Source: Mobula hypostoma
Lineage: Eukaryota
Direction of reading: 5' to 3'
DNA length: 64,000 nucleotides
Assembly (NCBI RefSeq): GCF_963921235.1
Contig: NC_086097.1
Coordinates: 109,990,001-110,054,000, forward strand
Position numbers and translations under genes: made by a program. Below are positions 9,700 to 54,600 of this stretch, piece after piece. Position 1 is the first letter of the stretch, and each line of letters begins with the position of its first letter. A model generated the notes under the pieces. The model had not been told where the DNA came from and did not search any database. It was given only the letters and a program-made list of their open reading frames with translations.

Positions 9700-9825
9700 A
9701 GGATCCTGCTGAAGAGTCTCGGCCTGAAATGTCGACTATACTCTTTTCCACAGATGTTGCCTGGCCTGTATTTTGTGTGTATTGCTTGGATTTCCAGCAT
9801 CTGCAGATTTTCTCTTGTTTGTGAA
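9700..9825 (+). mobile_element. Short PLE pseudo-LTR derivative with degenerate hammerhead motif
   Basis: cctgctgaagagtctcggcctgaaatgtcgact followed by the shared tail ...ggatttccagcatctgcag. Confidence 0.7.
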
Positions 9826-10114
9826 TGGTTCACTTCACACTAGCTCAGATTTAACTCCATTGACAACCTTCCTCACTATCAACAAGTCCACTAATTTTCA
9901 TGTAATCTACAAATTTACTGATAAACCACCTACATTTTTATCTAAATCATTTAAAAAACTTCAGTCATCTATGACCAAGACAATTTTGTATCGTACTTAA
10001 CAACTTACTACAGAATCATAAATCATATGTTTATCCAATGAGGAAACCATCCTTCAGCAGAACGCATCTCTGACAACTGAGGTGCCCAATTCCATGTACC
10101 TGGTTTTAGTTGTT

Positions 10115-10325
10115 TATTAATTTATTTATTGAGATACAGCAGAGAATAGGCCCTTCTGGCCCTTCGAGCCAAACTGCCCAACAATTCCCCAATTTAACTC
10201 CAGCCTAATCACAGGACAATACACAATGACCAAATAACCTACTAACCAGTACATCTTTGGACTGTGGGAGGAAAGCGGAGCACCCAGAGGAAACCTATGC
10301 GGTCATGGGGAGAACCAACAAACTC
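10115..10325 (-). mobile_element. V-SINE with CR1-like 3' tail
   Basis: tgtgggaggaaagcggagcacccagaggaaacc is the reverse complement of the V-domain core. Confidence 0.75.
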
Positions 10326-10326
10326 A

Positions 10327-11130
10327 GAGTCAGAATCAGAATCAGGTTTATTATCACCATGAAATTTGTTAACTTAGCAGCAGCAGTTCAATGCAATACA
10401 TAATATAGAAGGAAAAATATAATAATAATAAATAAATAAATAAATATATTACTGTGTGTATATTGTATAGATTAAAAATCATGCAAAAAAAAAGTAATAT
10501 ATATTAAAAAAGTGAGGTCGTGTTCAGGGGTTCAGTGTCCATTTAGGAATTGGATGGCAGAGGGGAAGAAGCTGTTCCTGAATTGCTGAGTATGCGGCTT
10601 CAGGTTTCTGTACCTCCTTCCTGATGGTAACAGTGAGAAAAGGGCATGCCCTGGGTGCTGCAGGTCCTTAATAATGGACGCTGCCTTTCTCAGACACCAT
10701 TCCTTGATGATGTCCTGGGTGCTTTATAGACTAGTATCCAAGATGGAGCCGACTAAATTTACAACCCTCTGAAGCTTCTCTCAGTCCTGTGCAGTAGCCC
10801 CTCACCCCCCATACCAGACAGTGATGCAGCCTGTTAGAATGCTCTCTACAGTACATCTACAGAAGTTTTTGAGTGTATTTGTTGACATACCAAATCTCTT
10901 CAAACTCCTAATGAAGCACAGTCGCTGTCTTGCCTTCTTTGTAACTGCATCGATATGTTAGGACTGGGTTAGGTCCTCAGAGATCTTGACACCCAGGAAC
11001 TTGAAACTGCTCACTCTCTCCACTTATGATCCCTCTATGAGGATTGGTATGTGTTCTTTCATCTTACCCTTCCCGAAGTCCACAATCAGCTCTTTCATCT
11101 TGCTGACATTGAGTGCAAGGTTGTTGCTGC
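10327..11130 (-). mobile_element. Rex1/Babar LINE 3' portion
   Basis: (CAGAAT)n tail at the left end; homologous to the other Rex1 copies in the window. Confidence 0.8.
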
Positions 11131-11603
11131 TTTAACCTAGATCACCTGTACAATAAAGCGTTATGCTAATCATTATGGCTTATATCCTTCTAAACATTTC
11201 CCATTTAGCTATCTTTTGAACATTGCAATTGTGTCCACCTCTAACACTTCTGCAGACAGCTCGTTCCATATTCCCACCATCCACATTGTGAAAATCTTGT
11301 CCCTCAGGTCCCGTTTAAATCTTACCTCCTTAAACCATGAAAGCTATTTCCTTATACACATTCTTTCTCTCACTCTCCTTTTTCTCCCTCTGTCCCTCTG
11401 ACTATACCCCTTGCCCATCCACTGGGTTCCTCCCTCCCTTGTCTTTCTCCCCGGGCCTCCTGTCCCATGATCCTCTCGTATCCCCTCTGCCAATCACCTG
11501 TCCAGCTCTTGGCTCCATCCCTCCCCCTCCTGTCTTCTCCTATCATTTTGGATCTCCCCCTCCCCCTCCCACTCTCAAATCTCTTACTAACTCTTCCTTC
11601 AGT

Positions 11604-11641
11604 TAGTCCTGACGAAGGGTCTTGGCCTGAAACATCGACTG
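11604..11641 (+). ncRNA. Minimal hammerhead ribozyme motif in 5' pseudo-LTR
   Basis: AGTC-CTGACGA-A-GGGT-CTTG-GCCT-GAAAC-ATC-GACT. Confidence 0.7.
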
Positions 11642-14600
11642 TACCTCTTCCTAGAGATGCTGCCTGGTCTGCTGCGTTCACCACAACTTTGATGTATGTT
11701 GCTTGAATTTCCAGAATGTGCAGAATTCCTGTTGTTGATGTTTTAAAATTCACTACTGCGAAGCCTCTTACGGTGATGCCTACACCGAAGAAGTTTAGAT
11801 CCTCTCTTCGACGGGAGTTCAGTGAAACCATCTCTCACTGCTCCCCATCTGTAATTTCTTCGGCTCTTCAACTTTTCAACCACATTTTGACTCAGACTCG
11901 CTATCACAGCCATATATCCTTTCTTGGAATGTGCCTCCATCGCCAACTTACTCCAGTTGGCTTTAGGATTCGTTTCCGAGCCTCTCAATTTGGACCTTCT
12001 GAGGATCCCAGGTACTCACATTTTATTGATTCTGCCTCTTGCTGCTTCTCCCGTCAAGCTCTGAAGGCGACCCTCTCCGCCATGAGGAGGTATGTGGTGT
12101 CCCTATCCCAGACCCTTCCACACCTTCGGGACACTTTCTTCACCATCTGTAATGGTCCTACCTGTTATTTCATCCTCCATTGGATCCATGCCTGCAATCA
12201 CCGTTTTTTTGACTTTGTCATGTTAGGCAAAGATCGCAAGATCCTACATCTGCAGACTCCAGAGCCTGCTGGCCCTGAAATTAGCAGGCATGAACTTCAG
12301 ATTGCCTCTGCCATTGATCTCGCCGGCTCCAACTCCTCAGGGCATATTCAAAACTCGGACTCCAGCAACGACCATGGACACCTTCAAAGCGATTGCGCAA
12401 CCACCAACTGCGACTCCAACCTTGAACTCCAGGCCGGGTCTTTATGTGCTGCTATTGTGACTCCCGTCTCCCCTTCCCCCATCACCACTCTCCAATCCTG
12501 TCTCCCTCAGATCCCATCGTCAACTCCTGGGTACTCAGAGGCTCCATCTTCCTCTCACCCCAACCCTCCCCTCTCCACTGACACCCCCAGCCTCCCCCCT
12601 CCCCCCTCTGATCCCAGCTCTCATCCATGCCGGGTCTTTATCATCCCCTCCGACCTTCAACTGTCGGAGGCAGAACGCTCGGTCCTCAGTAAGGGCCTCA
12701 CCTTTGTTCCCCTTCGCCCATACCACAGCGAGTTCTGTGTTCGCCATGATGCGGAACTCTTCTTCTGCCGTCTCCGTCTCCGAGCCTACTTCTTCAGCAA
12801 GGACTCTTCCACCCCCACCGATGACCCCTTCTTCTGTCTTCAACCCTCCTCTTCTTCATGGACACCCCGCTCTGGTCTTCTGCCTGCTCTGGATCTCTTT
12901 ATTGCTAATTGCCGACGGGACATCAACCGTCTCGACTTTACCGCACCTTGTCCCCATTCCAACCTCACTCCTTCGGAACACTCTGCTCTGCACTCCCTCC
13001 GCACTAATCCTAACCTTATTATTAAACCCGCCGATAAGGGGGGTGCTGTTGTAGTCTGCCGTACTGACCTCTACCTTGCTGAGGCACAGAAACAACTCGC
13101 GGATACCTCCTCTTATTTACCCCTCGATCGTGACCCCACTAAGGAGCACCAGGCCATTGTCTCCCACACCATCACCAACTTTATCCGCTCAGGGGATCTC
13201 CCATCCACTGCTACCAATCTTATAGTTCCCACACCTCGCACTTCCCGTTTCTACCTCCTACCCAAGATCCACAAACCTGCCTGTCCTGGCAGACCTATTG
13301 TCTCAGCTTGCTCTTGCCCCACCGAACTCATTTCTGCATATCTCGACACGGTTTTATCCCCCCTTGTTCAATTCCTCCCTACCTATGTTCGTGACACTTC
13401 TCACGCTCTTAAACTTTTCAATGATTTTAAGTTCCCTGGCCCCCACCGCTTTATTTTCACCATGGATGTCCAGTCCCTATATACTTCCATTCCCCCATTA
13501 GGAAGGTCTCAAAGCTCTCCGCTTCTTTTTGGATTCCAGACCTAATCAGTTCCCCTCTACCACCACTCTGCTCCGTCTAGCGGAATTAGTCCTCACCCTT
13601 AATAGTTTCTCCTTTGGCTCCTCCCACTTCCTCCAAACTGAAGGTGTAGCTATGGGCACCTGTATGGGTCCTAGCTATGCCTGCCCTTTTGTTGGCTTTG
13701 TGGAACAACCTATGTTCTGTACCTATTCTGGTATCTGTCCCCGACTCCTCCTTTGCTGCATCGACGACTGCATTGGCGCTGCTTCCTGCACGCATGCTGT
13801 GCTCGTTGACTTTATTGACTTTGCCTCCAACTTTCACCCTACCCTCAAGTTTACCTGGTCCATTTCTGACAGCTCCCTCCCCTTTCTAGATCTTTCTGTC
13901 TCTTGCTCTGGAATCAGCTTATCCACTGATGTCTACTCTAAGCCTACTGACTCTCACAGCTATCTGGACTATTCCTCTTCTCACCCTGTCTCTTGCAAAA
14001 ATGCCATCTCCTTCTCGTAATTCCTCCGTCTCCGCTGCATCTGCTCTCAGGATGAGGCTTTTCATTCCAGGACGAGGGAGATGTCCTCCTTTTTTAAAGA
14101 AAGGGGCTTCCCTTCCTCCACCATCAACCCTGCTCTCAAATGCATCTCCCCCATTTCACGTACATCTGCTCTCACTCCATCCTCCTGCCACCCCACTAGG
14201 AATAGGGTTCCCCTGGTCCTCACCTACCACCCCACCACCCTCCGGGTCCAAAATATTATTCTCTGTAACTTCCGCCACCTCCAACGGGATCCTACCACTA
14301 AGCACATCTTTCCCTTCCCCCCCCCCCGCTTTCCGCAGGGATCGCTCCCTACGCTACTCCCTTGTCCATCCGTCCCCACCATCCCTCCCCACTGATCTCC
14401 GTCCTGGCACTTATCCGTGTAAGCGGAACAAGTGCTACACATGCCCTTACACTTCCTCCCTTACCACCATTCAGGGCCTCAGTCAGTCCTTCCAGGTGAG
14501 ACAACACTTCACCTGTGAGTCGGCTGGGGTGATATACTGCGTCCGGTGCTCCCGATGTAGCCTTCTATATATTGACGAGACCCAACGCAGACTGGGAGAC

Positions 14601-15114
14601 CGCTTTGCTGAACACCTACGCTCTGTCCGCCAGAGAAAGCAGGATCTCCCAGTGGCCACACATTTTAATTCCACATCCCATTCCCATTCTGACATGTCTA
14701 TCCACGGCCTCCTCTACTGTAAAGATGAAGCCACACTCAGGTTGGAGCAACAACACCTGATATTCCGTCTGGGTAGCCTCCAACCTGATGGCATGAACAT
14801 TGACTTCTCTAACTTCTGCTAATGCCCCACCTCCCCCTCGTACCCCATCCGTTATTTATTTTTATACACACATTCTTTCTCTCACTCTCCTTTTTCTCCC
14901 TCTGTCCCTCTGACTATACTCCTTGCCCATCCTCTGGGTTCCCCCCGCCCTTGTCTTTCGCCCTGGGCCTCTTGTCCCATGATCCTCTCATATCCCTTTT
15001 GCCAATCAACTGCCCAGCTCTTGGCTCCATCCCTCCCTCTCTTGTCTTCTCCTATCATTTCGGATCTCCCCTTCCCCTCCCACTTTCAAATCTCTTACTC
15101 ACTCTTCCTTCAGT

Positions 15115-15152
15115 TAGTCCTGACGAAGGGTCTCGGCCTGAAACGTTGACTG
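15115..15152 (+). ncRNA. Minimal hammerhead ribozyme motif in 3' pseudo-LTR (best-preserved core)
   Basis: AGTC-CTGACGA-A-GGGT-CTCG-GCCT-GAAAC-GTT-GACT; core CUGANGA/GAAA/UH all present. Confidence 0.78.
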
Positions 15153-15489
15153 TACCTCTTCCTAGAGATGCTGCCTGGCCTGCTGCGTTCACCAGCAACT
15201 TTGATGTGTGTTGCAAAGCTATTTCCTCTAGCTTTAGGCTCAGTATCCCGAGAAAAAGATTGTGACCATTCTCCTTTTCCATTTCCCTCATGATTTTATA
15301 TATCTCTTTAAGATTAACCTGCAGCCTCCTACACCGCATAGAAACACCATGATCTTATCCACTCTGTCCTTACAACTCAAACTGTCCAATCCTGGCAGCA
15401 ACCTTGTGAATCTTTGCTGCACTATTTCTAGCTCAGTAACATTGTTCCTACCCCTCAGTGACCAACAGGGTGCACGATACCCTTCAAGT

Positions 15490-15941
15490 CGCTACAAAGG
15501 ATTGCAATGACTGCTGAGAGGATCACCATGGTCTGCTTTCTGCCCATTGGAGATATTTATCAGGAACGCTGCAGATGCAGGGCTGTTAGCATTGTCAATA
15601 ATCCTTCCCATCTGTCCAATAATCTCTTTAGCCCCTACCATCAACAAGAGTTGCCATAGCATTAGGACAAGAACTGTTACGATGGGAAACAGCTTCTTCC
15701 CCAGGTCATAAGATTACTAAATTCCCTGCAACCACCTGGGTTTCATCACGCATGAAACACCAGTAGTGTTACTCTGTTTACCTTTTAACTTGTATTGTTA
15801 ATGCATCTTTTATTTGTTAAGTTACTAGTGGTAATATTACTTTGTGAGTGTATCTACTGTGTTGTGCAGCGAAATGTTGTTTTGTTTGCCGGTATACATG
15901 TGTACGGCTGAATGACAATAATCTTGAATTTGAACTTGAAC
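15490..15941 (+). mobile_element. Rex1/Babar 3' fragment
   Basis: Rex1-like C-terminal coding remnant and (CTTGAA)n tail. Confidence 0.7.
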
Positions 15942-18115: not shown

Positions 18116-18129
18116 CCAATGTGTACAAA

Positions 18130-21277: not shown

Positions 21278-21279
21278 GT

Positions 21280-23110: not shown

Positions 23111-23114
23111 CTTT

Positions 23115-23820
23115 TCAAAGTTCAAAGTAAATGTATTATCAAATTATGTATATGTCACCGTACATTACTTTGAAGTTAATTTTCTTGCAGATTTTCACAG
23201 TAGAACAGAATCAATGAAAAACTATGTACAGACAACTAATGTGCAAAAGAAGACAAACTGTGCAAATCAATTTTTAAAAATAAATAAATCAATACTACAG
23301 AGAAAATGAGTTGTAGAGTCCTTAAAAGTGAGTTCATAGCTTGTGGACTATGCAACATTTATGGAAAAAAGTAAACAGATGATGTTTCATGCTGAGACTC
23401 TTTATCAGGACAGTTGCTCCAGCATTTTGTGTGTATTTGATTTCCAGCATCTGCAGATTTTCTCCAGTTCACAGTTGGTGGAATCCATTCAGAGTTGAGG
23501 TGAGTGAAGTTATCCGTACTGGTTCAGAAGCCTGATGGTTGAAGGGTAATAGCCATGTCTGCACCTGGTGGTGTGGGACTTAAGGCTCCTTCCGGATGGT
23601 AACAATGAGAAGAGAGCATGGATTGGATGGTGGGATCCTTGATAATGGATGTTCTCGTTCTTAAGTGTTCCTTATAAATATGTTCAATGGTGGGGAGGGG
23701 TTTCCTGTTATGGATTGGGCTCTGCCTAACAGATCTTGTAGCATTTCTTTTCTTGGGCATTGGTGTTTCCATACCAGGCCATGAGGCAACCAGTTGGGAT
23801 ACTCTCCACTATTAGATCCC
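23115..23820 (-). mobile_element. Rex1/Babar 3' portion containing an inserted PLE-derived hammerhead fragment (23350-23465)
   Basis: (TTCAAAG)n tail and Rex1 C-terminal remnants; minus-strand tcctgataaagagtctcagcatgaaacatc. Confidence 0.7.
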
Positions 23821-26339
23821 ACCTAATAGATCGAAATGTTTTTCTGCCCAGGGTCAGGACCCTAAACTGAGAAAAATCCATATTACATCCTTTCTTTAAA
23901 ACAATTGCTTGTAAAATAAACAGCAATCTAATAACTTACTGAAAACTTTTAATCATGGCTTCAGTCTTGGCTAAAATGGCAAGACACTGCCAAACAGAAT
24001 CCCTCGTGGTAAACTAACTTTCTCCCTTCTGTGTATGGTGGAATGAAGACGGTTGCCTTAATCCAGAGTTAACCTTTGCTTCCAAGTTTGAGTTTCCTGA
24101 AATATTCAATGAAAGTATGCCTTAATATCTGCAATGGTCTTCTACCACGTATGCCCATCGGGACTTAATCAGAAATGAACAGTGCCTCGATGCTTTAATC
24201 TGGTTTTATTGATATTCTATGTCAAATTGTTAAGGGCATTTCAATCTGTTGCCCCGAAAGAGATTCTTACACACTACTAAAAGAAGATGACAGCAGAAAC
24301 CCAATTCACTTCCGTAAATAGTCAAGATCATAACTCTCCGATCTCACTCCTGTATCCTGCGTAACTTAACTTTATTGGTCTTGAGCAAGAACTGGATTCG
24401 GGGTCCCTGATATTGCCCTTTCGTAGCATTGAAACTTTTGGAGGTAATCAGCGCTTTTCTTATGGGAAAAATAATCTCGGAAATCATGGTTTATTCTGTT
24501 TATTGCTAATGATTAAAAGAGTACCTTTTTCTTCTCACACAAGATCGTCCAAAGACACAGTGGCTACTGACAACCTCCAGCACCAAACTAAACTTTGGAA
24601 ACGGAGGCCCTAGAACCGACTGGCCCTTGCTACACTTTTAGTATCATGGATTTGGTCAGATTTAATATTTTTTCCTCTCCTCATCCCACCTCTCAATCCT
24701 CGCGGGACGAGAGAAAGACTGGGCGAAGTGTTAAAGTTGCATAGTTATCTCTGCCAGGGACACCACTCTTATAACAACGCCCTCACTAAAGAACGTAACC
24801 ACGGAAGAATGCTTCCACTTCTCGCCACAAATGTAAATGGAGAGATTAACGACCCGGCGATCTCCCTTAAAGAAAGTCACACCGGGACATCTGGGCCACA
24901 GGGAAATGAGGTGAACGGTATAATTTGGCTATAAAGCTGAATGTGTGCTTAAGCAATGTAGAAAACGGGAGACGTAACAATTTCTCTATATTCTCGTTGA
25001 TATTTCTTGCGAGGACTTAACTAAGATATTCAATTTTAACTCACTCTAATACTAGTTTCTCATCAACAAAATTAAAATAAAAACATCTTGCGCGGAAACA
25101 GATAATAGGGGAAAGAATGCTTTGTGTATATAAAATGATTTCCCGTCTCTTCTTGAACATCTAGGATTCTGGAACCAACTCCCAAAGGGCAATGGTACCA
25201 AGGCGTTTATCAGATTCTTAAAATGTCAGCTTTTCCTGTGAGATTCTATCATCATCATATTTTACTTTCAGCTGCTGTAGAAATTGTCATTATGTTTGAA
25301 AACGCAAGATAGATGTATTTTTGGCCCTGTCCATTCGTAATTTGCTTTAACAGTTGTTTGACTTGTCAGATAAGTGTCCTGAACAGTAAATGCTCAATAT
25401 TATTCCATTTTGCCTTTTGTTTTGTTCTGTGTTAAAGCACACTGCATAAGTTTTTTTTCTAATACATGAACACAGCCTAAAATGCCTACGTCTCAGTGGG
25501 TATTGCCAGTGGCTACTGCAAGCTGGCAACGCAGCAGGCTTCGAATGAGATGCGGCTCCGTGCCGAACCAGGGAAAAGAAAAAAACAGTTAGACTGACAA
25601 TTTTTGCTCCATACTTGCTGTCAACTGATTCTTCGGGTTAATTTTGAATGAAATTTCAGTTCAGTATGAAAGCAAAGAAAATAATTAGAAAATGGTTGTT
25701 TTTGAACGTAATCTGTATGTCCTGGTACATTATTAAGTGGAAAACAAGATTTTCACAATGCCTTTCATGTGCTTTAATGGCTCAGTAGATGGAATGGAGA
25801 AATCGTCAATAAATTGCCACTCTTTAAACTGAGAAATGCAGGGAATTGAATCGTTGCTGGTTTAATAAAATAAGATGCTTCACCTGCTTTATTCCTAAAA
25901 ACAGGAAATAAATTTCTATAGCACATATATGACGTCGCACTAAAGATGAATTAAGTTAATGTTTGCAGTTTCAGGCAATGAGACCTGATGGCGGTGTCAC
26001 TGGTTCGGTTTTCCTCACAATAAAGGAAATCACCAAACGTGACGACAAAGTTTGCCCACTTATGTTTGTCCCAATCAGTTATAGTCCTATTTGTTCGCTT
26101 CTGAAAAATTCAACATCAAAAATATCAATTAAACGTTCTTTTCGAATTGGAGTACTGGGTGGAACGCTTCAATAAATTATCACTATGTTTGCAGATTGCA
26201 ATTTTAAATGTAAATACAACTGCAAGCGGGGAAAATTTGGGGAAACGGCTGAAAGTCTGGAACGTTGTGATAATATGGAAGCCGCATATATCATCAATTA
26301 CAAACACAAGAAAATTTGTAGACGCTTTAAGTCCAACGC

Positions 26340-26340
<1 letters not shown>

Positions 26341-26392
<52 letters not shown>
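26341..26392. repeat. (AC)26 microsatellite
   Basis: Perfect dinucleotide run abutting the end of the fold-back element. Confidence 0.98.
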
Positions 26393-26396
<4 letters not shown>

Positions 26397-26567
26397 CAGA
26401 AAATGCTGGAGGAACTCAGCAGGCCAGGCAACATCCATGGAAAAGAGTAAACAGTCGACGTTTCAATCAAGTCCTGAAAAGGGGCCTTGGCCCGAAACGT
26501 CGACCGTTTACTCTTTTCCATAGGTGCTGCCTAGCCTCCTGGGTTCCTACAGCACTGAGTGTGTTGC
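26397..26567. mobile_element. Fold-back non-autonomous PLE derivative with central hammerhead motif
   Basis: Arms ~26400-26464 and ~26494-26556 are imperfect reverse complements; motif GTC-CTGAAAA-G-GGGCC-TT-GGCCC-GAAAC-GTC-GAC at 26471-26504. Confidence 0.8.
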
Positions 26568-27540
26568 TATCTAATCAATTGTAGTTTTGGCTCTAGCTTT
26601 TCTACAGTAAGTGGCGAGGAGATGGAGATGTTTGTGTGCACATGACGCAAAAGCAGAAGAAAGACTGAACAGTAACAAAGCCCAGGCCTGTGGGAAATAC
26701 TGGATGATCCAGTATTCGAATCGCTAGGTGACACAATGTTACTGCGAACCACGTGAAGCCCTCCAGTTAAATTAATCTGCAGTATTGACATTCAACATTG
26801 GCATTGCTGGTCCGTATTGATATTAAGACCCTGCCGTTTGTAATGTTTTAGATTGGTCAACCATTAATTTCATTTCGCTTAGGCATGATTTGATGGAGCA
26901 AAATTCATCACAGTGTCACAGCTAACCGCCGCACAAGGCCAGTGATTAGCCGATAAATACACCGCGGCTGTGGCGGGGCATATGGTTGTTAACATACAAA
27001 CTCACTACCATGTGGTAAATGCGTCAATGTAGGAATCTGCGGCAAACTATCATTAGGAAATTGCCAATAACATTGAAATCGCTGTTCCTTTAAGATGTAC
27101 AACAACCCAAAGTAATACACATATTTGAAACCATCTATGCTGGCATCTGATATGGACATTCTTAATAACATCCACAGCATACAATTTAATCCATAATATT
27201 AATCAATCAACGATAAATATCAGAACCAACGTATAAAGTTTCCACGAAATGTTCCAATGTGCAACGCTTTTAACAAAAAAAAAGAGGATTTTTCTTCCAT
27301 CATTCCTAAATAGTGCACCATGCTCAGATGTATCGGGTTGATGCTGACATGTGGAAAGACGGTTTAATATAAGGTATGCACGCCATGCTTTTCCCTTTAT
27401 TTTAAACGACTAGCTGATCCTCCTAGCCTCGTTGCTGTCAGCTCGACTGCCCCATGGAGATGATGATAATATTTGATGTCTATGGGCTGCTGCCCCAGCT
27501 CCTGTCTCCCTCGGGGCGCAAGATGCCAGCGTCTGCACCT

Positions 27541-33500: not shown

Positions 33501-33660
33501 TGTGTGTATTGAAGTAACGTTTAGACTAAACAATCTCTTCGTGGTTTAAAAATATCAACGCTTCCGGATCTGCAACATGGTCAATCCGACATTCTGAAGA
33601 AGCCAGAATATCAAGTTAATAGTCGCGGAGCAAACTTTGTTTTAAAAAAAATCTCAGGAG

Positions 33661-33820
33661 GTTCTGCAGATGATGAAAATCTTGAACAACGCACACAAAA
33701 TGCTGAAGGAACTCAGCAAGTCGGGTAGCATCAACGGACGGGAATGAACAGTCGACTTTTCAGGCTGAATTCATTTCCCATTCCCGATGAGGGTCTCGGT
33801 CCTAAACGTTGACTGTTTTT
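33661..33820. mobile_element. Partially inverted PLE-derived short element with degenerate hammerhead motif
   Basis: Minus-orientation tail (cacacaaaatgctgaaggaactcagc...aacagtcgac) followed by plus-orientation ccgatgagggtctcggtcctaaacgttgactg. Confidence 0.7.
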
Positions 33821-36995: not shown

Positions 36996-37038
36996 TTAAC
37001 TCTTCAGGTCAAGCCCACTTTAGTGGGACAAGAAACAA

Positions 37039-37075
37039 AGCTGACATTTCAGGTCAAAGGTCCTTAATCAGAGCT
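37039..37075 (-). ncRNA. Divergent hammerhead-like motif (second PLE family)
   Basis: Minus strand reads AGCT-CTGATTA-AGGAC-CTTT-GACCT-GAAAT-GTC-AGCT, preceded by a pyrimidine-rich pLTR-like tract. Confidence 0.45.
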
Positions 37076-44208: not shown

Positions 44209-45399
44209 ATTCATCCAGTGTTTCTATAGCCTCCATACAATGAGTTTTCCATGTACCCATTGTCTCAATGATATTCTTTTCCACTATTATCTTCCTCAAT
44301 GAAAATAGATGCAAGGTACCCATTTAGTACTTTAACACAGCCTTATGCATTCCTATTTTTCTCCCAAATGGACCCCACTCTTCCATCCACTTTTAATATT
44401 TGTATGCCTTGAATGGACTTTTGGATTCCCATTTATGTTGGTAGCTGATTTTTCTCATTGCCTTCATTGATTTTCTTATTTGCCCTTCTGATTCTTTTAC
44501 GATCAGCCGTTTTGTCTCCCCTAGTATTTACAATACTTGTTATGTGCAAGTTTTTTATCACTTTGCTTTATTTTGCATAAGGGTACCCTGATTGTGTAGT
44601 TTTTCATTTGTTTTACATGGAAATTGCCTCAACTATTCCTGGACCATCTTCTCCTTAAGGCAACCTATTGTTTGTTTGTTTTACCTTTTAGTTCAATATC
44701 ATGGGCCACATCCTGTTCCATTCTAGCTTAGTTGACCTTCCTAGAATTAATTATTTTTTTCTTTGAATTGTTTTGTTTTCTCCTTTATCAAACTAACCTT
44801 GTCTTTTAATGTAATGATCACCAACTTTTAAATGAAACTTGATACACGTGGTCCCCCTCATTTCCCAGAACCAGAGTCAGACTGGATTTTATTGCCCAAT
44901 GCACAAATACATGTATGTACAAGTACGATGAGAAAGTTACTTGCAGCAGCATTACTGCATCACGGGTACATTGTATTGGAATCAGTCCCAGCAATGTCTC
45001 CTTCCTCATTGGAACAGAAACATATTACTCCTAAATCACTCTTTAGAAACTGTTCACTCTCTGAGTTATGGTGTGGAAGATGGAAAGAACTTTGCAATCA
45101 GTTTAGACTAGTGATAATTATACATTCTTTTTAGTTTATTAAAACTTCATGACATGTGCAGCTAACATTAACCATTTTCATACCAGTGGTTTTAATAAAA
45201 TGTCTAAAAAGTGGTAAACACTTCGATTGGAGGTAATTGCTATGGTGGTAATCAAGTGACAGGAAATACGTGTCATGGTACAGGAAATTGTCTGATCAAG
45301 TGCTTAAAGGAAGGTGATTAAGAGAGCAAAAAAAGAGAATTTCTTTGGTCTGGCATTGAGGCGTGCTGAGGACCATAACAAAGAAGATTAGCTCATAAA

Positions 45400-45640
45400 C
45401 GTGACAAAGTCTGCAGATGCTGGAAATCCAAAGTAACATACGCAAAATGCTGGAGGAACTCAGCAAGCCAGGCAGCATCTATGGAAATGAATAAATAGTC
45501 GGTATTTTGGGCTGAGACCCTTCGTCAGGATTGAGAAGGAAGAGGCAAAATGCTATAATAAAAAGGTAGAAGGAGGGGTAGGAGGCTAGCTGGAAGGTGA
45601 TAGATGAAGCCAGGTGACGGGGAAAGGTCAAGACTTCATT
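45400..45640 (-). mobile_element. PLE pseudo-LTR fragment with degenerate hammerhead motif (45497-45531)
   Basis: Minus strand reads tcctgacgaagggtctcagcccaaaataccgact plus the shared tail; its upstream part is homologous to 62930-62997. Confidence 0.75.
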
Positions 45641-46029
45641 AGCTCATGTTTGGTTTTGCCAGCCCTTCAGAAAAGCACTGCTCTTCTCAATAGAACTGTT
45701 GCTCACACAGAATGCTAGTGAACGCAGCAGGTGCGTTGCTTCCTGGATCGACAGAGTAGACTTTGCCGTCATGTTGTAGATGTGGCCAAATGCTGTCAAA
45801 GATGTTGAAGACTCTTAGATTTGCTGTGATCAGAAACAGAAGAATGGATATGAGAAATGCATTTACTGGAATGATGCAAACCGTCAGTACAGCAAAGTCT
45901 TTTACTAATTAGATCAGAACCACATTCTGTAAATCAGTATTTTGGAACTCCCTTTCTGGTGTTAATACCATTTCTATGCCAGTTTATAGTGGAATAAACA
46001 TAGTCCCCTATTATAACTCCACTGCCGAT

Positions 46030-49000
46030 TAGGGTTTCTGCAACAGGGTTCCGTAGAACCACTAGAACAGTAGAGGCCATTTCTGGATCTGCAGACTCTG
46101 AAGCAGTAAGGACATGGGAACAGCTGGGATGTAACTTCTGCATGAAAAATTACGATGAAAAAGTAAGTGCAAGAGATTGTGATAAAAAAAAACATTGTTT
46201 TTTGAACTTGACGCAACGCGTGATGCTGGCACTCGCAGTGGTGGGCCGAGAACAAATAATCTCGTTAGAGGTCTCTCTGCCCAGTGTGGCAGTGCGCAGT
46301 CAGGCCGTGTTTATTTGCTGGAGTCCATTCTCAGTTTTTGATGTGAGATAGGGTAGGCTGCTGATAATTGGTGAGCGCTGTATTGCATGGGCGAAGGACG
46401 GTAGGCTGACAATTGGTGAGTGCTATATTGCACAGAGAGGAATATGGTAGGCTGATGAGGAGCATGAAGTGCATTTTCCAAGCATTGAATGGACTCGCCA
46501 TTTTTATATTTTATTAACCCCTGTGTTTTACAGACATGTCCGATGGTCCAATGTGGCAATTTTTGAATTACAATATTCTGAGTCATTTCACTGCACTAGT
46601 GCAACAATGGACACAGAAAAGTCCGCCTTTACAATGAAAGCTACTTATCAATGGGTTTTACATGGACTGGAGATCCAAGTTGTCCTATTTCATTGTGCCC
46701 AGTCTGTAGCAAACAACTTACCAATGCAGCAATGGCTCCAACAAAATTGAAAGGACACTTAACTACAAATCACAGCCATATGACACATGAAAGTGCTGAT
46801 TATTTTAACCGGCTAGTGGAGTCTCAAAACAAACAGAGTAAAGCTTTTATTAATAAAATCAGAGTCATCAATAAGGTTCAGGAAGCAAGTTATTTAGTAG
46901 CAGAACTTATTACCCAGAAAAGGAAAAGACACGCAGTTAGTGAGAACCTAATGCCAGCATGTAAAATTATAGTGGGTAAAATGCTAGGACAAGATGTGAT
47001 ACAAGAAATTGGAAAGGTTTCACGCTCAATGATGATGATGGCTGGATCTTTGCTTGCGAAGATCAGGAGGGAAGAAGAGTCCTCAGGAACGATGGCCTGA
47101 TCGTTGGTGACTGTAGAGGCCAATTCTGGATCTGCAGACACTGAAATGGTAGGGATGCCCGAACAGCTGGGACGTGGGCACTTGGGTAGTGGGATCCTTC
47201 CTGCATCTCCTCCTCTCCTCAGCAGTCGCTCTGCACTGTGGGTCAGCGTTCTCCAGCTGCTGCCACTCATTGACCTCGATATTTGCCTGAGAGAGTTACT
47301 GCTTAAGTTGGTCTTTGTACCTCTTGAGCTGGGCACCTCGATCTGTCTTGGCCTGAGATGGTTCTCCGTGGAGTTCTACTCTTGGTAACTAGGAGTTGTC
47401 CATGTGAGATACATGGCCTGACCAGCATTGCTGCTTGAGCAGCAAAGTGGCTTCAATGCTTGGAAGTTGAGCCTTCTCCAGGACCTCATTATTGGAGACA
47501 AGATTCTACCAGCTGATACCCATGATGGAGCAGAGACAGTGCTGATGGAAGTGTTCGAGCAACCGAATTTGTTTGCGGTACAAGACCCAGCCTTTGGAGC
47601 TGTATAGCAGTGTGGTGATTATGACAGCCTGGTACACCTGGATTTCTATGGACATACACAGCTGTTGGTTCTTCCATATATGTTTCTGGAGGCGGTCGAA
47701 GGCATTGCTGGGTCTAGCGAGTCGATTGTCAATGTCCGTGCTACTATAGCGTCATTGGAGATGACACTGTCTAGGTAGGTGAACTGCTCAACTGTGGTGA
47801 GAGGGTGATCGTCAATGGTGATCCATGGTTGGTTGTAAATGCCACGAGAGGGCTTCTGATGGAGGAACATTGTTTTCTTCAAAATGACCATTAACTCAAA
47901 GGCTCTTTCAGCCTTGGCGAACTGAGTGACTACAGGCTGTAGCGCATCCTCTGTGTGCATGAAAAGAGTACAGTCATCCGCGTATAGTAGCTTGAGAATG
48001 GGGTCTTGCTTGGTTTTTGTCCGGGTAAGAAGGCAGCCGCTCTCAAACAATACAATAAGTCAATGTATTGATGACATGTCACATGATGTTGAAGAGGGTT
48101 TCTCTGATAAACTGAAAAAAAACACCTTCTCTATCCACGTTGATGAGTCAACAGATTTCACCAATAAATGTAATTTTGTAGCATTTGTAAGATTTGTAAA
48201 TGATGGTAAAATTCAAGAAAACCTTTTCTCTTGCAAAAAGCTGCCCAAAACAAGCACAGGCCAAGATATATTTAATGTTTTGTCTTCATACCCAGAAACA
48301 AAAGGTCTGTCTTGGAGGAACTGTGTGCCCCATTGATTCTTACTGAACACTACAGAACAAGATTGAACAGTAATTTTCCTCTCTTTCAATACAAATGTAT
48401 GAATGGGTGAGGGATATTTTTTCTGAATCCTCTGCTCAGCGTGAGAACTTGACTTTGAGAGAGGAGGAAGAACTTTAAGAGCTGCAGTCTGATTTAGCAC
48501 TCAAAATGAAATTTATTGACCTGTCCTTGGACAAGCTCTGGATTTCTGTGAAAGAAGAGAATCTTGTCATTCGAAGGAAAGCAATGAACATTTTGCTGCA
48601 GTTTTCAACTTCTTGCATGTGTGAGCAAGCTTAACCTTGTTTAACAAGAATCAAGAGCAAGGATAGAGATCATCCCACTTCAGTTGAAGGTAAAATCCCT
48701 GTGTGCTTATAACAAGTTCCACCCAGTATTTGTGCAGCAAAAAACAAGCACAGGTTTCACATGCTAGGCCTATATTTGAGCCTGGTCATGTCACTTAGTA
48801 AGAAAATGTTTTTCAGTGTCTCGTATTTAATTGTATTAGGCTGTTGTCATTAATATTGCATTGGTTTATGGTTTTTAGTAACTTTACTATTCAATATTGT
48901 CAATATATATTCATGTTGTAAATAGATTTAATTAAAATCAATTTTCAACCTCATTTTAAATTAAATCTACTGAGCCTACCTTTAGAAATATTAATTCCCA

Positions 49001-49312
49001 TTTTGGCTTAAGCCAGTTATTTAACAGAAATTTATTATGTTTGCCTTATGAGTTTTTAAAATTTATGAAAGGGAAAATGATTAATATCAAGAAAGGTAAG
49101 CTGAGCTTAACTACCTGTTTTTTTTCAAGAAAGGTTGGCTAAAAATTCACTCTCTACTCAAAAGAGCATTGACAATTATTATTACATCTACAAATTACTG
49201 ATCAAACTAACATGCCATGAGCTGTAGAGACAATCATTTTTATGCAGGGGTCCCCTGAGACCTGAAGATTATTTCATGAGTTATTCCAGGGTAAAAAGAT
49301 TGATAAGGGCTG
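46030..49312 (+). mobile_element. hAT (Buster/Charlie-type) DNA transposon, defective
   Basis: BED finger GFTWTGD..LC.VC.KQL.N.AM.P.KL..HL.T.H (46651-47020); LSNNTI..IDDMS..FSIHVDESTD..LFSC (48037-48330); C-terminal dimerisation remnant LWISVKEE..KAMNILLQFSTSCMCEQ (~48500-48700). Right terminus ...gattgataagggctg is followed by ctatagat (nnnTAnnn). Left end uncertain. Confidence 0.85.
47030..48036 (-). mobile_element. RTE (BovB-like) LINE, 5'-truncated, inserted antisense into the hAT transposase
   Basis: ORF 47646-48050 (LLYADDCTL..HTEDALQ..FTYL.SVISND); C-terminal CRSRIGLYSHQR; (CAT)n tail at 47030-47040; imperfect TSD tcacgctcaa/ccgctctcaa. Confidence 0.88.
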
Positions 49313-49421
49313 CTATAGATTTTGCACTTCTCTAATACATTTGTATATTTGTTTGTCTTCTCAGAAGTGAACTACAGATTATATCTAGTAGTGTGTATTC
49401 CCTTCACAGAGATGAACAATA

Positions 49422-49990
49422 GACTATATCCATCGGTGTGAATTGCGGACTATATCCAGCAGTGTGATCTACAGACTATATCCAGCAGTGTGAATTGCGG
49501 ACTATACCCAGTAGTGTGATCTACAGACTATATCCAGCAGTGTCAATTGCGGACTATATCCAGCAGCGTGATCTACAGACTATATCCAGCAGTGTGATCT
49601 ACAGACTATATCCAGCAGTGTGAATTGCGGACTGTATCCAGCAGTGTGATCTACAGACTATATCCAGCAGTGTGATCTACAGACTATATCCAGCAGTGTG
49701 AATTGCGGACTATATCCAGCAGTGTGATCTACAGACTATATCCAGCAGTGTGAATTGCGGACTATATCCAGCAGTGTGATCTACAGACTATATCCAGCAG
49801 TGTGATCTACAGACTATATCCAGCAGTGTGAATTGCGGACTATATCCAGCAGTGTGATCTACAGACTATATCCAGCAGTGTGATCTACAGACTATATCCA
49901 GCAGTGTGATCTACAGACTATATCCAGTAGTGTGAACTGCGGACTATATCCAGCAGTGTGAACTGCGGACTATATCCAGCAGTGTGAATT
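49422..49990. repeat. 26-bp minisatellite, 21 full units plus a partial, two interspersed variants
   Basis: gactatatccagcagtgtga followed by either tctaca or attgcg. Confidence 0.97.
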
Positions 49991-50334
49991 CCCTTCTAAT
50001 GTGTTTTAGTCTTAATCAAACAGATTCTTTGGCCTTGTGGTTCCATTCTCTCTCATAAGCCGATAAGGTTCTCCTCAACAGTGCCACCCCTTGTCCTTTC
50101 TTCTCTATTCTTCTGAAACACTTTTCATCCTAGTGCCAGTCCTGTTCCTTTCTGAGCCAAGTTTATGATGCTGGCATCATATTGTACTCTCAATGATCAA
50201 TTTGTGCTTGTGGATTCAGCCCTATTTACTGCAATCTGCGCAGTCATAAACATGCACAGTATATGGATGCCCAGAAAGGCAGCAAACATCATTGCAAACT
50301 TCCTTCACCCAGGACATTCTCTCTTCTGATGTGT

Positions 50335-50877
50335 TCTGATGTGTCTATCCACGGCCTCCTCTACTGTTGAGATGAAGCCACACTCAGGTTGGAGGAAAAA
50401 CACCTTATATTCCATCTGGGTAGCCTCCAACCTGATGGCATGAACATCGACTTCTCTAACTTCCGTTGATGCTCCGCCTCCACTTCATACCCTATCCCTT
50501 GTTTATTTATTTATTTATTATTAATTTTTCTTCTTCTCTGTCTCTCATTTTTCTCCCCATGTCCCTCTCACTGTAGCTCCTTGCCCATCCTCTGGGTTTT
50601 TCCCCCTCGCCCTTTTCTTTCTCCCTAGGTCTCCTGTCCCATGATCCTCTCATATCCCTTTTGCCAATCACCTGTCCAGCTCTTGACTCCATCCTTCCCC
50701 CTCCTGTCTTCTCCTATCATTTCAGATCTCCCCCTCCCCCTCCCACTTTCAAATCTCTTACTAGCTCTTCTTTCAGTTCGTCCTGACGAAGGGTCTCGGC
50801 CCAAAACGTCGACTGTACCTCTTCCTAGAGATGCTGCCTGGCCTGCTGCGTTCACCAGCAACTTTGATGTGTGTTGC
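50335..50877 (+). mobile_element. 5'-truncated Penelope-like element (GIY-YIG end + pseudo-LTR, hammerhead motif at 50780-50814)
   Basis: Highly similar to 14690-15214; GTC-CTGACGA-A-GGGT-CTCG-GCCC-AAAAC-GTC-GAC; ends at the same ...ttgatgtgtgttgc. Confidence 0.9.
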
Positions 50878-50986
50878 AGAGCACACTAATGATGGTGTGT
50901 TAGGCTGAGTCGTCGCAGGTTGGGTGGTGCAGTGGCTCCCACCCTCCAGGCTACCAACCGATACATTACCACGAAGCACGCAGGGG

Positions 50987-51222
50987 TGCAGCGGTAGCTG
51001 GGATACACACAGCACATCTTTAAGAAAAAAGCCGAAATAAACATGCTAATTAATTACATGCCTCCCGACACGTAATTGTCGGCCCAGATCAGTGCTGATT
51101 GCCAATTGCATTGCCTCTGATCTGGGCCGACAATTACGTGTAGGGTGGTATCTAATTAATTAGCATGTTTATTTCGGCTTTTTTCTTAAAGGTGTACTGT
51201 GTGCCTCCCGGCTACTGCTGCA
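50987..51222. repeat. Long imperfect inverted repeat (fold-back), probably within a DNA-transposon remnant
   Basis: Arms 50987-51092 and 51117-51222 are reverse complements with long perfect blocks. Confidence 0.9.
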
Positions 51223-52274
51223 TTCTCCGCGAATCGGTACAGTATCTGCCCACGGCCTGGGTGTTAGGGTGGTGGGACACTGGGGTATCATCTCGTCGTC
51301 TGTTTCCATTAGAGCAGGCAGCTCATCTTCTCCTATGACTGCCCGCCTCAATGTCGAAGGTCGAGGTTCGTCATCTGCTATGGCTGATGTGGAAGACTTG
51401 CTTGACTGCTGAGCCTCGTGCATTTTCATTGACTGTTTTCATTGACTTCAGGAAAATCTTTATACTGACCTAATTCTATTACCTTCCCTATTTCTTTTTG
51501 CCTGTCTTTAATTTCAATTGTTAATTTTTTTTCTGTTGGTGAACTCTGCCCCTCCACAGATCACTTTGTCATTGCCCTTCTCCTCTTATCCCCCAGTTGT
51601 GTGACATCCTGAAACACGTTTTCATTTTTTTTAAAAGCATACTTACTCCACCTAGTTACCTCATGATTTTTTTTAAAGTCTTGCTTTTAAATCTGACATT
51701 GTGTCATTAAAGGTTTTTTTATTTGTTTAAGGTTATTATTTGCTTGACGTATAATGTTTACAGATTTCTGACACTTCAGCTGGTCTTGTTCTTTTTCTTC
51801 AATCTAGAGGTCGTCAGTTTTGATTCACAAACAGTGAATGATGCTTTGGCTGAATGAATGGCTTGTTCCATGTAATGTTTTGCAAATCACACAACACTAT
51901 GATCACAGGTCCTTTATAGTGCTGGTGATTTCAAATGGCTTGATGTTACAGTACATGGAGTTGCTTTCTTAGCTATCAGGTTCCATATGGAAATTACCCA
52001 CCGGCTCGAATGGTGTCGGGCTATATTTCTCTGTATTTTGTTTCATGCATTCCACTTGACTTTATTACACTTGGACAGGTTTTGCTTAGTTAATTTGCAG
52101 GATATCTCTGAAAAATGAGTGTAGCTGGTGGCATTACCATCATTAAATGCAGTATCCTCAGTAATTACATAAAATTTTCTTGCTTGATTCACTTGCCTTG
52201 ATATAGACAGAATGGATGACTTTCTTTCACAAATTTCTCTTCTTTATATGACCACGAGTGTAATTCTACAATTG

Positions 52275-52985
52275 TAGAACACTACAGGAGCAGGCCCTTC
52301 ACCCCACAATGTTGTGTTGAACCAGCTAAAAAGTAAATCAACCCTCCCCCCAGAACAAATCCCTCCTACCTTCACAATGTCCATATCCCTCCATCTTCCT
52401 CATATTCATGTGCTTATCTAAATGTCTCTTAAAAGCCTCTACCACCATACCAGACAGCTCATTCCAGGCATCCACTATTCTCTCAACAAAAGAACTTACC
52501 CCTCACATCCCCTTTGAACCTACCCCCTCTCACCTTCAGTACATGCCTTCTGGTATTAGACATTTCTACACTAGGGAAAAGATACTCCCTGTCTACTTAT
52601 TCTATGCCTCTGATCTTATAAACCTCCATCAGCTCTCCCCTCAGCCTCCAGTGCTCCAGAGAAAGCAACACAAGTTTGTCCAGCCTCTCCTGATAGCATA
52701 TGCCTTCTAAACCAGGCAGCATCCTGGGAAACCTCTTCTGAACCCTCTCCAAAGTCTCAATATCCTTGCTACAGTGGGTCAACCAGAACTGTATGCAATA
52801 CTCCAGATGTGACCTGACCAGAGTTTTATAAAGTTGCAACATAACCTCTTGACTTTTGAACTCTAGTGCCTCAGCTAATAAAAGCAAGCATTCCATAAGC
52901 TGCCGTAACCACCTTATTGTTCTGCGTAGCCACTTTCAAAGAGCTCTGAACTCGAAACTCAAGATCTCTCTGCTCAGCAACACTA
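52275..52985 (-). mobile_element. CR1 3' portion
   Basis: ORF 52597-52896 (MLQLYKTLVRSHLEYCIQFW). Confidence 0.88.
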
Positions 52986-53896
52986 CTCTTGCTCTGTCTT
53001 TGCTTATTGATCTGTGCTAGAAAGGAAGCTCCATCCAACACCAATAGCAAATGTTGGGCAGGTAGCTGTGAAATATTTGTTGATGGTGACTAGGAAGAAG
53101 TATATCACTGCCTGAGGTTGAAATTTAGGTGGACAGATAATGATGCTGGTAGCACAAGGAGAGACTAATAGTGCACAAAGAAAAAGAGAATAAGATGGAG
53201 AAATAATATTCTGGATTTAACTTAAGTGGGCAGATTTAAAGTTTCAGAAATACACACATTGAGCAATTAAGTCAGTTTTCCTTTTCCAATCTTTGACCAT
53301 ATTGCTGAATCCACTTCTGAGGATCTCACACTGACTTATCACTTCTGCAGCAAACTCTTTTCAATGGCCTTTTTATGTTTGCCAGCAGGTCTTTTCATCC
53401 CATCTGAAGACAGTATTGTGTCTCTACTAGCCTCAGATAAAATAATCATGAAGAGTTGTCTTTGTTCATTCATGAATAATCATGAATGAGTCAAATTGTC
53501 TACAGACAATTTGCACTCCATAGTTTATCCTCCTTTTGCTCTGTAATAAATTCCAAATAGAATAAAATGCAATAATCAGAGTCCCTTATTAAAGAATGGA
53601 GCTGACGTTAGTTTATGCACATCAAAAACAAGCCTGCTTCATCATATCAGCCAAGAAACCTCGAAATGATAAGGAGTATTTGGGTGAAAAAGCCAACGTT
53701 GAGGTGACATGTTCTTTCCCTTGATCCTAGCAAATGGCAATTGATAACAGATAATAAATAGATTAAAATGAGGGAGCATGTGGTTAAAAATTAAATTAAA
53801 ACATCTGACTTATACAAAATACTATTTTTGCTATTAGCACCAAAGGACCAATAACAACCAGAATACAACCATAAGCACATGAAATTCAATCTTCCT

Positions 53897-54600
53897 CAGA
53901 ATCAGAATCAGGTTTATCGTCACTGATATATTATGAAAATTGTTCTTATGGGGCAGCAGTACTATGCAAGAGATATTTTAAAAATTACTGTAAGTAACAC
54001 ACACAGAAAACCAGAAGTGCTCAACATCTATGGAAAAGAGTCAATAGTCGACATTACGGGCCAAGAAGTCCTGAAGAAGAGTTTCAGCCTGAAACATTGA
54101 CTGTTCTCTCTTTTCTATAGATGTTGGCTGACCTGCTGTGTTCCTCCAGCACTTTGTGTATGTTGCTTTGGATTTCCAGCATCAGCAAACTTCCTCATGG
54201 TTGTGATTTACTATAAGTTACAATAAGAAATAAAATAGTGTAAAAGAGGAATAGCGAGGTTCATGAACTGTTCAGAAATCTGATAGAGGCCAGGAAGAAG
54301 CTGTTCCTAAAATGTTGAGTGTGCATCTTCAGGCTCCTGTTGTTCCTTCCTGATGGTAGGGATGAAAAGAGGGTGTGTCCAAGATGGTGAAGGCCCTTTA
54401 ATGATGGATTTTGCTTTTTTAATAAGCTGCCTTTTGAAGATGTCCTCAATGGTGGGGAGCCTCATGCCCGTTTTGAAACTGGCTGAGTCTACGACCCTCT
54501 GCGATCTCTTCTGATGCTGAGCCTTGGAGCCCCCATACCAGGTGATGCTGCAACCTGCCTGCTCTCTGTGGTACACCTGCAGAAATTTGTTGAATCCCCA
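53897..54600 (-). mobile_element. Rex1/Babar 3' portion with nested fold-back hammerhead element (~54000-54200)
   Basis: (CAGAAT)n tail and Rex1 C-terminal ORFs; AGTC-CTGAAGA-A-GAGT-TTCA-GCCT-GAAAC-ATT-GACT at 54067-54102. Confidence 0.8.

Follow-up and report, generated by a model that had tools for sequence, protein, structure and literature searches.

A broken Penelope-like element and related insertions

The window analysed here, a 64-kb stretch of the Mobula hypostoma genome, contains a broken full-length Penelope-like element (PLE) and a series of shorter insertions, with ten hammerhead motifs that represent nine insertions (Table 1). Both pseudo-LTRs (pLTRs) of the full-length element carry a hammerhead, and alignment of the 5' and 3' repeats reveals 24 differences per 349 aligned bases. 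The open frame, which starts ~65 nt past the end of the hammerhead motif, is interrupted by frameshifts near 13501 and 14310 and by a stop codon at 14018-14020. Inspection of the encoded protein places CIDD at motif C of the reverse transcriptase (RT). Relatives that combine RT and GIY-YIG domains number 721 proteins at E<=1e-20, the closest coming from Chiloscyllium (74%); in an alignment with such relatives the linker between RT and endonuclease (EN) is invariant in all six sequences, as are the Cys/His (CCHH) residues of the GIY-YIG domain. This domain misses the Pfam cut-off in the window copy (E=0.029) and scores 2.4e-05 in the relative P0028. A Pfam search with three window ORF pieces gave no match at E<=0.01, the 11 and 95 hits of a protein pattern scan in sequence collections included no confirmed relative, and a PDB profile search gave 0 matches. 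The element likely belongs to the Neptune clade, an assignment that follows the linker, although the CX2-5CxxC linker is common to Nematis as well.

Each of the eight remaining motifs belongs to an insertion that is 5'-truncated or inverted, and target-site duplications of their own accompany five of them. Across the nine loci, duplications exceed the 99th percentile of the null at five, the locus at 26471 is borderline (4% of null), and significant duplications are absent at three (33782, 37039 and 50780); those in the window span 10-17 bp. The truncated family A copy matches at 87% over 549 nt (88% by tblastn) and shares its 3' end with 15214; a duplication search around it found none. The five short insertions each show a different architecture. 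In one, a minus-strand hammerhead adjoins a forward tail piece (23413-23465); in another, the inverted arm runs up to about 26465 and contains a CA microsatellite; and in the insertion at 33655..33820 the forward hammerhead (33780-33814) carries U4>C and G12>U and is one base short. The motif at 54067-54102 retains its core, with a helix II mismatch, C/A at 15.2/16.2 and U at N17. The weakest copy, at 37039, has no nhmmer match at E<=10 and local scores of 26-38, and probably derives from another, older PLE family, a weak assignment. No family B ORF occurs within the window, and we infer that this family has an autonomous partner. A subsequent insertion likely truncated the family B fragment that lacks a hammerhead. 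The preliminary description had overlooked this fragment (62784-63000), as well as a forward tail piece next to 23377 and inverted partial arms adjoining 26471, 33782 and 54067.

Table 1. Insertions, repeats and hammerhead motifs in the window.
Feature	Coordinates	Strand	Remarks
Short family B insertion	9692..9823	+	Hammerhead 9703-9738 (A6>C), long tail; duplication 14/17
Left target-site duplication	11340..11352	+	13 bp, 13/13 with 15215-15227; null 99th percentile score 9
5' pseudo-LTR, family A	11353..11702	+	5'-truncated upstream copy of partial tandem
Hammerhead motif	11605..11640	+	Core intact; G10.1-U11.1; 15.2/16.2 = C/A
Broken PLE ORF	11707..14822	+	RT with DKG motif, CX4CxxC linker, C-terminal GIY-YIG
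3' pseudo-LTR	14865..15214	+	Ends at first 3' end, about +95 from C3
Best-preserved hammerhead	15116..15151	+	Core intact, ACGU kept, GUU triplet, G10.1-U11.1; sole descriptor pass
Right target-site duplication	15215..15227	+	Pairs with 11340..11352
Short family B insertion, internal inversion	23348..23465	.	Hammerhead 23377-23412 on minus strand (G8>A); duplication 14/17
Palindromic (head-to-head) family B insertion	26300..26568	.	Forward hammerhead 26470-26505 (G8>A); duplication 11/13
Palindromic family B insertion	33655..33820	.	Inverted arm 33655-33769; right arm very short; duplication not significant
Divergent hammerhead-like motif	37039..37075	-	G8>U; helix I AGCU/AGCU; 12/36 differences
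Family B insertion	45397..45637	-	105 nt UTR, hammerhead 45497-45532 (G12>A, U16.1>C), long tail; duplication 10/10
Truncated family A copy	50334..50878	+	Endonuclease end, UTR, hammerhead 50779-50814 (G12>A)
Palindromic family B insertion	54000..54207	.	Inverted arm to 54066; forward hammerhead 54067-54102; duplication 13/15
Family B UTR fragment without hammerhead	62784..63000	+	Ends ~25 nt short of hammerhead; 86% over 80 nt to 45397-45637

The motif family and its published counterpart

The preliminary description had listed ten related motifs, and all of them were recovered on the same strands and at the same positions or a few bases off, with 2, 2, 3, 6, 6, 7, 7, 7, 10 and 12 mismatches to the 36-nt consensus it proposed. 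A 31-nt pattern allowing up to 3 mismatches matched the window three times and 100 shuffles not at all, and an ungapped 36-mer allowing up to 12 mismatches gave nine window matches against 0 in 30 shuffles, which excludes chance for the set. The family consensus has the CUGANGA, GAAA and NUH core that had been proposed. Position 11.1, given as C, is T in six of the ten copies, so the proposed consensus is an ancestral reconstruction, and no copy is identical to it. A base is added after A9 in nine copies, the 10.1-11.1 pair is G-C in four and G-U in six, and 15.2/16.2 is C/G in four, the other copies showing CpG-decay forms. Most deviations are indeed of the CpG type, narrowly (32 of 62 changes across the ten copies).

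Minimal hammerheads are known from the pLTRs of metazoan PLEs (Cervera & De la Pena 2014, PMC4209133), and the common ancestor of the ten motifs, as reconstructed, fits this published minimal type I form, with its cut position between +27 and +28 from C3. Features that the paper's consensus shares with the window family are CUGANGA, one extra base after A9, G10.1-C11.1, GAAA, a zero-loop palindromic helix III (ACGU here), a short helix I, one hammerhead per pLTR and a predominance of solo copies from truncated elements. The identification as a PLE pLTR hammerhead is borne out, both by the fit to this consensus and by the presence of the motif in both pLTRs. The Acropora Neptune hammerhead in Fig S3 of the same paper is closely similar: its core and its CGUC end are the same, and its helix II likewise has 4 bp and a tetraloop, whereas helix II has 7-8 bp in the Schistosoma families. 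This kind of element is, on the account in PMC4209133, already known; the present genome contributes scale, together with a host group that the 2014 tables lack. Cartilaginous fish are absent from Table S1 and Fig S3 of that paper (supplement file 1 may include some), and our literature search turned up no study dedicated to the PLE hammerheads of elasmobranchs, though the supplements of Li et al. may list cartilaginous fish. The paper reports descriptor matches of about 4,000 in coelacanth and about 9,000 in Xenopus, a different measure from the density here of 9 insertions per 64 kb. Rfam misses the motif: a covariance-model search of the window returned four matches at E<=5, none of them to a hammerhead. 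A pattern search of viral and metagenome contig collections gave 0 matches.

The family is also very large, as the preliminary description supposed, with matches in 93,024 contigs of one sequencing run. Within the hammerhead, alternative letters in the contigs either restore the consensus or correspond to CpG decay or N7 variation, and none reaches 10% at C3, U4, G5, A6, G8, A9, A13, A14 or A15.1, shares that are skewed toward the reference copy. Depth summed across contigs, 13.4 million for the tail and about 15 for the flanks, was set aside as an unreliable measure of copy number. Nor was the fall in depth across the hammerhead taken for biology, since the reference copy carries mutations at that very place.

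Origin of the short copies

Considering these data together, we regard it as highly probable that the ten motifs are mutated end-fragments of PLEs, the short copies being likely aborted insertions by the element's own enzyme and not working ribozymes. The window itself provides a broken full-length element, duplications of 10-17 bp, two 3' ends, inverted arms and a core eroded by CpG decay. PLEs have been described as forming partial tandems, leaving truncated copies in inverted orientation and carrying a tail of 30-40 bp at one end (Craig et al. 2021, PMC8557442), and the pLTR partial tandem, inverted truncated neighbours, tail and target-site duplication found here match those of EN+ elements. 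The likeness to the Neptune clade extends to the order of RT and C-terminal GIY-YIG and to the CX2-5CxxC linker; the differences are that the window copy is broken and that the linker is also a Nematis trait. Among the ends of short arms, eight of ten fall at or within the 5' half of the hammerhead and none at the cut site. Loose contig ends cluster at two places with A-rich, dissimilar flanks (2476+999 and 1503 contigs), corresponding to two favoured 3' ends with a spacing of about 37 nt.

An insertion mechanism can be proposed by analogy with PAc, a Poseidon element of Anolis carolinensis, which is reported to initiate internally, extend both strands, copy uncut RNA and undergo cleavage with the assistance of protein, insertion in vitro not requiring cleavage (Frangieh et al. 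2024, PMC11167929). Under this model, the RT-endonuclease would nick both strands of AT-rich DNA, and reverse transcription would begin at an internal position of the RNA that lies about 67 or 104 nt downstream from where the hammerhead cuts. Uncut RNA would serve as the template, with copying often halting at or within the hammerhead, and priming from both nicks would yield two short cDNAs joined head-to-head. After insertion, methyl-CpG decay would strike G8, G12, C11.1, C15.2/G16.2 and C17, every one of which lies within a CpG dinucleotide. The two systems are alike in having two 3' ends parted by the tail, A/T-rich flanks and copies with uncut hammerheads. They differ in clade, which limits the analogy, and in that the PAc hammerhead overlaps the start codon. 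Simple fold-back of cDNA at helix I was rejected as the source of the palindromes, because the inverted arms begin at +11 to +19 and not after +31.

The preliminary description had instead seen an autonomous/non-autonomous system. On a rival reading, the short units would be a true non-autonomous family, retrozyme- or SINE-like, whose ~100-135 nt RNA starts at helix I, is made independently and relies on the PLE enzyme for mobilisation in trans. Consistent with such a family, five of the six hammerhead-bearing family B arms start no more than 9 nt upstream of C3, two resolved joints have nothing but two helix I letters between their sides, and the best-supported joint in run X1 (15 contigs) connects the hammerhead 5' edge head-to-tail with the tail end, which hints at tandem units elsewhere. 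Animal non-LTR retrozymes, described as pLTR-derived, non-coding and bearing a type I hammerhead, include dispersed monomers and occur in the sole chondrichthyan sampled in a recent preprint (Li, Clavereau & Pollet 2026, 10.64898/2026.07.22.740005). As defined there, however, retrozymes are tandem units each with a complete hammerhead, whereas the short copies in the window are solo or inverted, and none of the 12 TRF rows in the window is a tandem array of a short unit. The five short insertions, moreover, are all unlike in architecture, longer family B copies (45397-45637 and 62784-63000) retain the upstream UTR, and the reference copy begins to mismatch at 45530, where joints are clipped artificially. 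We therefore judge a separate family improbable: the short copies vary in breakpoints and architecture, match known PLE integration products and look like aborted PLE insertions.

A further and rather improbable proposal is that the hammerhead marks the end of reverse transcription instead of a site of RNA cleavage. Either the RNA would start at helix I and nearby priming would yield large numbers of ~100-135 nt copies, or a double hammerhead would clamp two template RNAs, both nicks would prime and the cDNAs would join inside the motif. In a family of this size, one can tally where insertions break relative to the cut site and to the edge of helix I; were the proposal true, hundreds of thousands of junctions would map a non-catalytic role of the PLE hammerhead at base resolution.

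Decay of the catalytic core and predicted activity

The preliminary description treated the copies as ribozymes, a view that their sequences do not support. A core base is lost in seven of the ten, and all 11 core bases are intact in only three. A descriptor of the motif gives 0 matches in 60 shuffles and is passed by a single copy (15116-15151), the other nine failing. All three core-intact copies have G10.1-U11.1 and two lack the ACGU palindrome; at 11605..11640 the palindrome is lost through the C/A at 15.2/16.2. Three motifs lie within head-to-head palindromes, two of which are predicted to fold as long hairpins (26385-26572, -104 kcal/mol; 54000..54207, -70.7 kcal/mol) that bury the 3' half of the hammerhead. 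For the consensus monomer, an inactive rod is predicted to be favoured over the active fold (-11.9 vs -7.9 kcal/mol). Ten motifs, judged by their letters, are thus not ten ribozymes: most window copies are predicted to be dead, and the PLE hammerhead here is predicted to need dimerisation or the help of a protein in order to cut. In a methylated genome, a catalytic core rich in CpG decays fast, and repeat counts would far exceed ribozyme counts.

That the dispersed copies are working cis-acting ribozymes, cutting host transcripts that run through them, is accordingly very improbable. Three copies do have every core base, and the family occurs in 10,209 contigs of run X9, which is RNA only by guess; against this stand the palindrome losses, the G-U pairs, the buried 3' halves and the predicted rod, and among Xenopus dimer elements only one of nine cleaved in vitro. 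Two contigs of X9 have a joint at 45500, the first base past the cut site; this was discarded as cleavage evidence because three adjacent reference mismatches force the clip. It is scarcely credible that the hammerhead fold arises by coincidence in a repeat never selected as a ribozyme, for although the window alignment lacks covariation (double changes in none of eight pairs, 78.8% paired vs 79.9% shuffled, ten copies under MAFFT; two double changes appear only via the doubtful copy 37039, in pairwise register) and Rfam gave no hammerhead match, the motif occupies the published pLTR position, passes the shuffle comparison and has all the unforced traits of the published consensus: the extra A after A9, G10.1-C11.1, the palindromic 15.2-16.2 and the U-rich upstream stretch.

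A pyrimidine tract plus AG directly before helix I may be a candidate splice acceptor, as in D. virilis. In a pattern search, donor-like splice sites occurred only within the ORF and none in the UTR, and a U-rich stretch also belongs to the published consensus.

Hammerhead motifs and their carrier element

We searched the window for the ten hammerhead-like motifs claimed in the preliminary description and found them all (9703, 11604, 15115, 23377, 26471, 33782, 37039, 45497, 50780 and 54067), each with 2 to 12 differences from the proposed 36-nt consensus. At three or fewer mismatches a 31-nt pattern gave 3 matches in the window versus 0 in 100 shuffles, and at twelve or fewer the 36-nt consensus gave 9 versus 0 in 30 shuffles; because shuffled sequence yields no match at either limit, a chance origin of the motif set is excluded. 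A profile built from seven copies, which as seeds match by construction, returned 13 hits in the window at E<1e-4 (best E in the reversed window, 0.92); copy 37039 was absent from these hits and is the weakest member of the set. An Rfam scan of the window returned four matches at E<=5, none of them a hammerhead.

The same description attributed the motifs to a Penelope-like element (PLE), and inspection of 11353-15214 bears this out: here lies a full-length element with an ORF between two pseudo-LTRs (pLTRs), which together with a truncated copy we term family A. Over 349 bases the two pLTRs show 24 differences, so that the insertion is probably not recent, and the ORF is broken by two frameshifts and one stop. 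A 294-residue piece of this ORF has 721 relatives at E<=1e-20, headed by a bamboo shark protein (74%), with lower-ranking named relatives coming mostly from marine invertebrates, plus turtle, tick and snail. The C-terminal piece matches GIY-YIG weakly, at E=0.029, short of the cut-off, and the CX4CxxC linker and CxxC/H residues of the protein are invariant across six aligned sequences. Such a linker is described as a mark of Neptune and Nematis (PMC8557442), and in vertebrates Li et al. found no PLEs other than Neptune and Poseidon (10.64898/2026.07.22.740005). Taken together, these two restrictions make Neptune the likely assignment of the carrier.

Features of the window
Feature	Position	Strand	Details
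PLE, pLTR-ORF-pLTR layout	11353-15214		perfect 13-bp duplication
Truncated family A copy	50334-50878		same family as 11353-15214 element
neurod6-like ORF, intact	29007-30110	+	93% to skate protein
Fold-back element, MITE-like	50987-51222		106-nt arms, 91% complementary; one copy in window
Minisatellite	49292-50094		26-bp unit, about 22 copies, 87% matches (TRF)
Broken LINE	18095-20164	+	RT and zf-RVT domains
166-aa frame	46600-47100	+	Pfam: one unrelated sub-threshold hit
Another abundant repeat	10500-11120		9 further matches in window
Tandem repeat	40051-40220		periods 20/40/80 bp

Decay of the ribozyme

No copy (0 of 10) matches the consensus exactly, and seven of the ten have lost at least one of the 11 core bases. 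Among the three core-intact copies, the ACGU palindrome is gone in two and a G10.1-U11.1 pair (hammerhead numbering) is present in all three. A relaxed descriptor of the minimal type I hammerhead was passed by a single copy (15120) and gave no hits in 60 shuffles. As had been proposed, most deviations are CpG-type transitions (32 of 62), the others being 19 other transitions, 10 transversions and one gap; ten of the 36 motif positions belong to CpG dinucleotides, among them G8, C11.1, G12, C15.2, G16.2 and C17, and the window as a whole has a GC content of 41.8% and a CpG observed/expected ratio of 0.37. Covariation was seen in none of eight pairs among the ten copies, a result that is expected of neutrally decaying copies from one ancestor but lends no support.

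Palindromic insertions are predicted to fold into hairpins (-104 kcal/mol at 26471, -70.7 at 54067) that bury the 3' half of the motif in both cases. The consensus monomer is predicted to favour a rod whose core is base-paired to the CGUC end (-11.9 versus -7.9 kcal/mol); the predicted probability of a hammerhead-like shape is 0.0008 with C7, 0.014 with U7 and 0.31 with A7, values that leave out tertiary contacts and dimers. For the minimal hammerheads of PLEs, monomers are reported to lack activity and dimers to cleave weakly (PMC4209133), and any catalytic role here would fall to tandem transcripts of intact elements, not to the local copies.

A pyrimidine tract followed by AG abuts helix I upstream at 15060-15119 in family A and at 45530-45590 (minus strand) in family B, where it was read from other contig letters. 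This arrangement looks like the splice acceptor of D. virilis, and the only sites resembling a donor are at 14416, 14493 and 14512.

Short copies and their ends

Six short copies belong to a sister family, B, whose tail and UTR are unlike those of family A. With search windows chosen by eye, duplications of 10-17 bp flanking 9703, 23377, 45497 and 54067 exceed the 99th percentile set by 400 null pairs, that at 26471 is weaker (4% of null), and the same comparison found no significant duplication for 33782, 37039 or 50780. Head-to-head palindromes occur at three loci and an internal inversion at one (23377). Counted from C3, the 3' ends lie around +95 or around +125 to +134; the two arms of 26471, like those of 54067, end at different 3' positions within one locus. 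This architecture corresponds to the published account of PLE insertions, in which an inverted truncated copy is accompanied by a 30-40 bp tail on one end (PMC8557442), and the palindromes recall the inverted pLTRs of rotifer elements, which are described as having palindromes at the junction (PMC3846280). A (CA)26 microsatellite at 26341-26393 lies within an inverted PLE arm and has apparently expanded from the arm's own CA run. At 45705-45732 (minus strand) 28 nt weakly resemble the PLE tail (E=0.13); this stretch lacks a hammerhead and lies ~70 nt from the family B insertion at 45497.

By best local alignment, the inner ends of eight of ten family B arms fall between -9 and +19 from C3, and the remaining two at about +68 and at -109; in this small sample (10), ascertained through the motif, none coincides with the cut site between +27 and +28. 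The lack of such ends agrees with the anole element PAc, for which uncut RNA is described as the template and no reads ending at the cut site (PMC11167929). PAc is further described there as nicking and extending both strands, starting inside the RNA, and its ribozyme cleavage as requiring the PAc protein (PMC11167929). What is observed here is the element's structure, the duplications, the pair of 3' ends, the inversions and the decay; the insertions were probably made by PAc-like chemistry, with frequent stops at the hammerhead.

We also mapped four of 24 sequencing runs on the family B locus at 45330-45700; the two raw-read runs among them gave 0 reads. Run X1 contributed 93,024 matching contigs, and because its flanks have a depth of about 15 and two contigs run over the ends, it comes from this species or a close one; run X9, which we guess to be RNA, contributed 10,209. 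At the motif, other letters in the contigs bring back the consensus base at U16.1 (88%), at the G of helix I (89%) and at C15.2 (53%), G16.2 (39%) and G12 (34%), and at the other nine core bases no alternative letter reaches 10% among these contigs, shares that are biased towards the reference copy. The biggest tail-side piles of loose ends (2476, 999 and 1503 contigs) follow the element for a further 10-16 letters before becoming A-rich and unlike, as expected if there are two 3' ends separated by about 37 nt. At least 21 X1 contigs switch strand between the tail and the edge of the hammerhead, and in at least 15 that edge connects back to the end of the tail, counted among the 15 joints listed (164 others) at positions blurred by reference mismatches.

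For a genome of a few Gb, the nine insertions in 64 kb would extrapolate to hundreds of thousands per genome if the window is typical. The family is a very abundant new member of the established PLE hammerhead kind, and the local copies are relics. The 2014 lists of PLE hammerheads, as far as available, have no cartilaginous fish among their entries (PMC4209133), and retrozymes are reported in one cartilaginous fish (Li et al., 10.64898/2026.07.22.740005); our literature searches found no published paper dedicated to this family.

Neighboring features

The four nearest relatives of the neurod6-like ORF are all from cartilaginous fish (skate 93%, sharks 90% and 85%, chimaera 79%), which makes a ray or skate the likely host. 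PLE palindromes lie on either side of this ORF: the one at 26300-26568 is ~2.5 kb upstream of it, and the one at 33655-33820 is ~3.5 kb downstream. The fold-back element gives sub-threshold mir-7131 hits. We take the 166-aa frame to resemble a hAT/ZBED transposase fragment, and the broken LINE at 18095-20164 is presumably L1/Tx1-like. Further broken LINE copies, at 164-1947, 3324-5476 and 42313-43216, carry RVT_1 in the two pieces scanned and are assumed to be CR1-like; the full-length PLE is inserted in a fragment akin to them.
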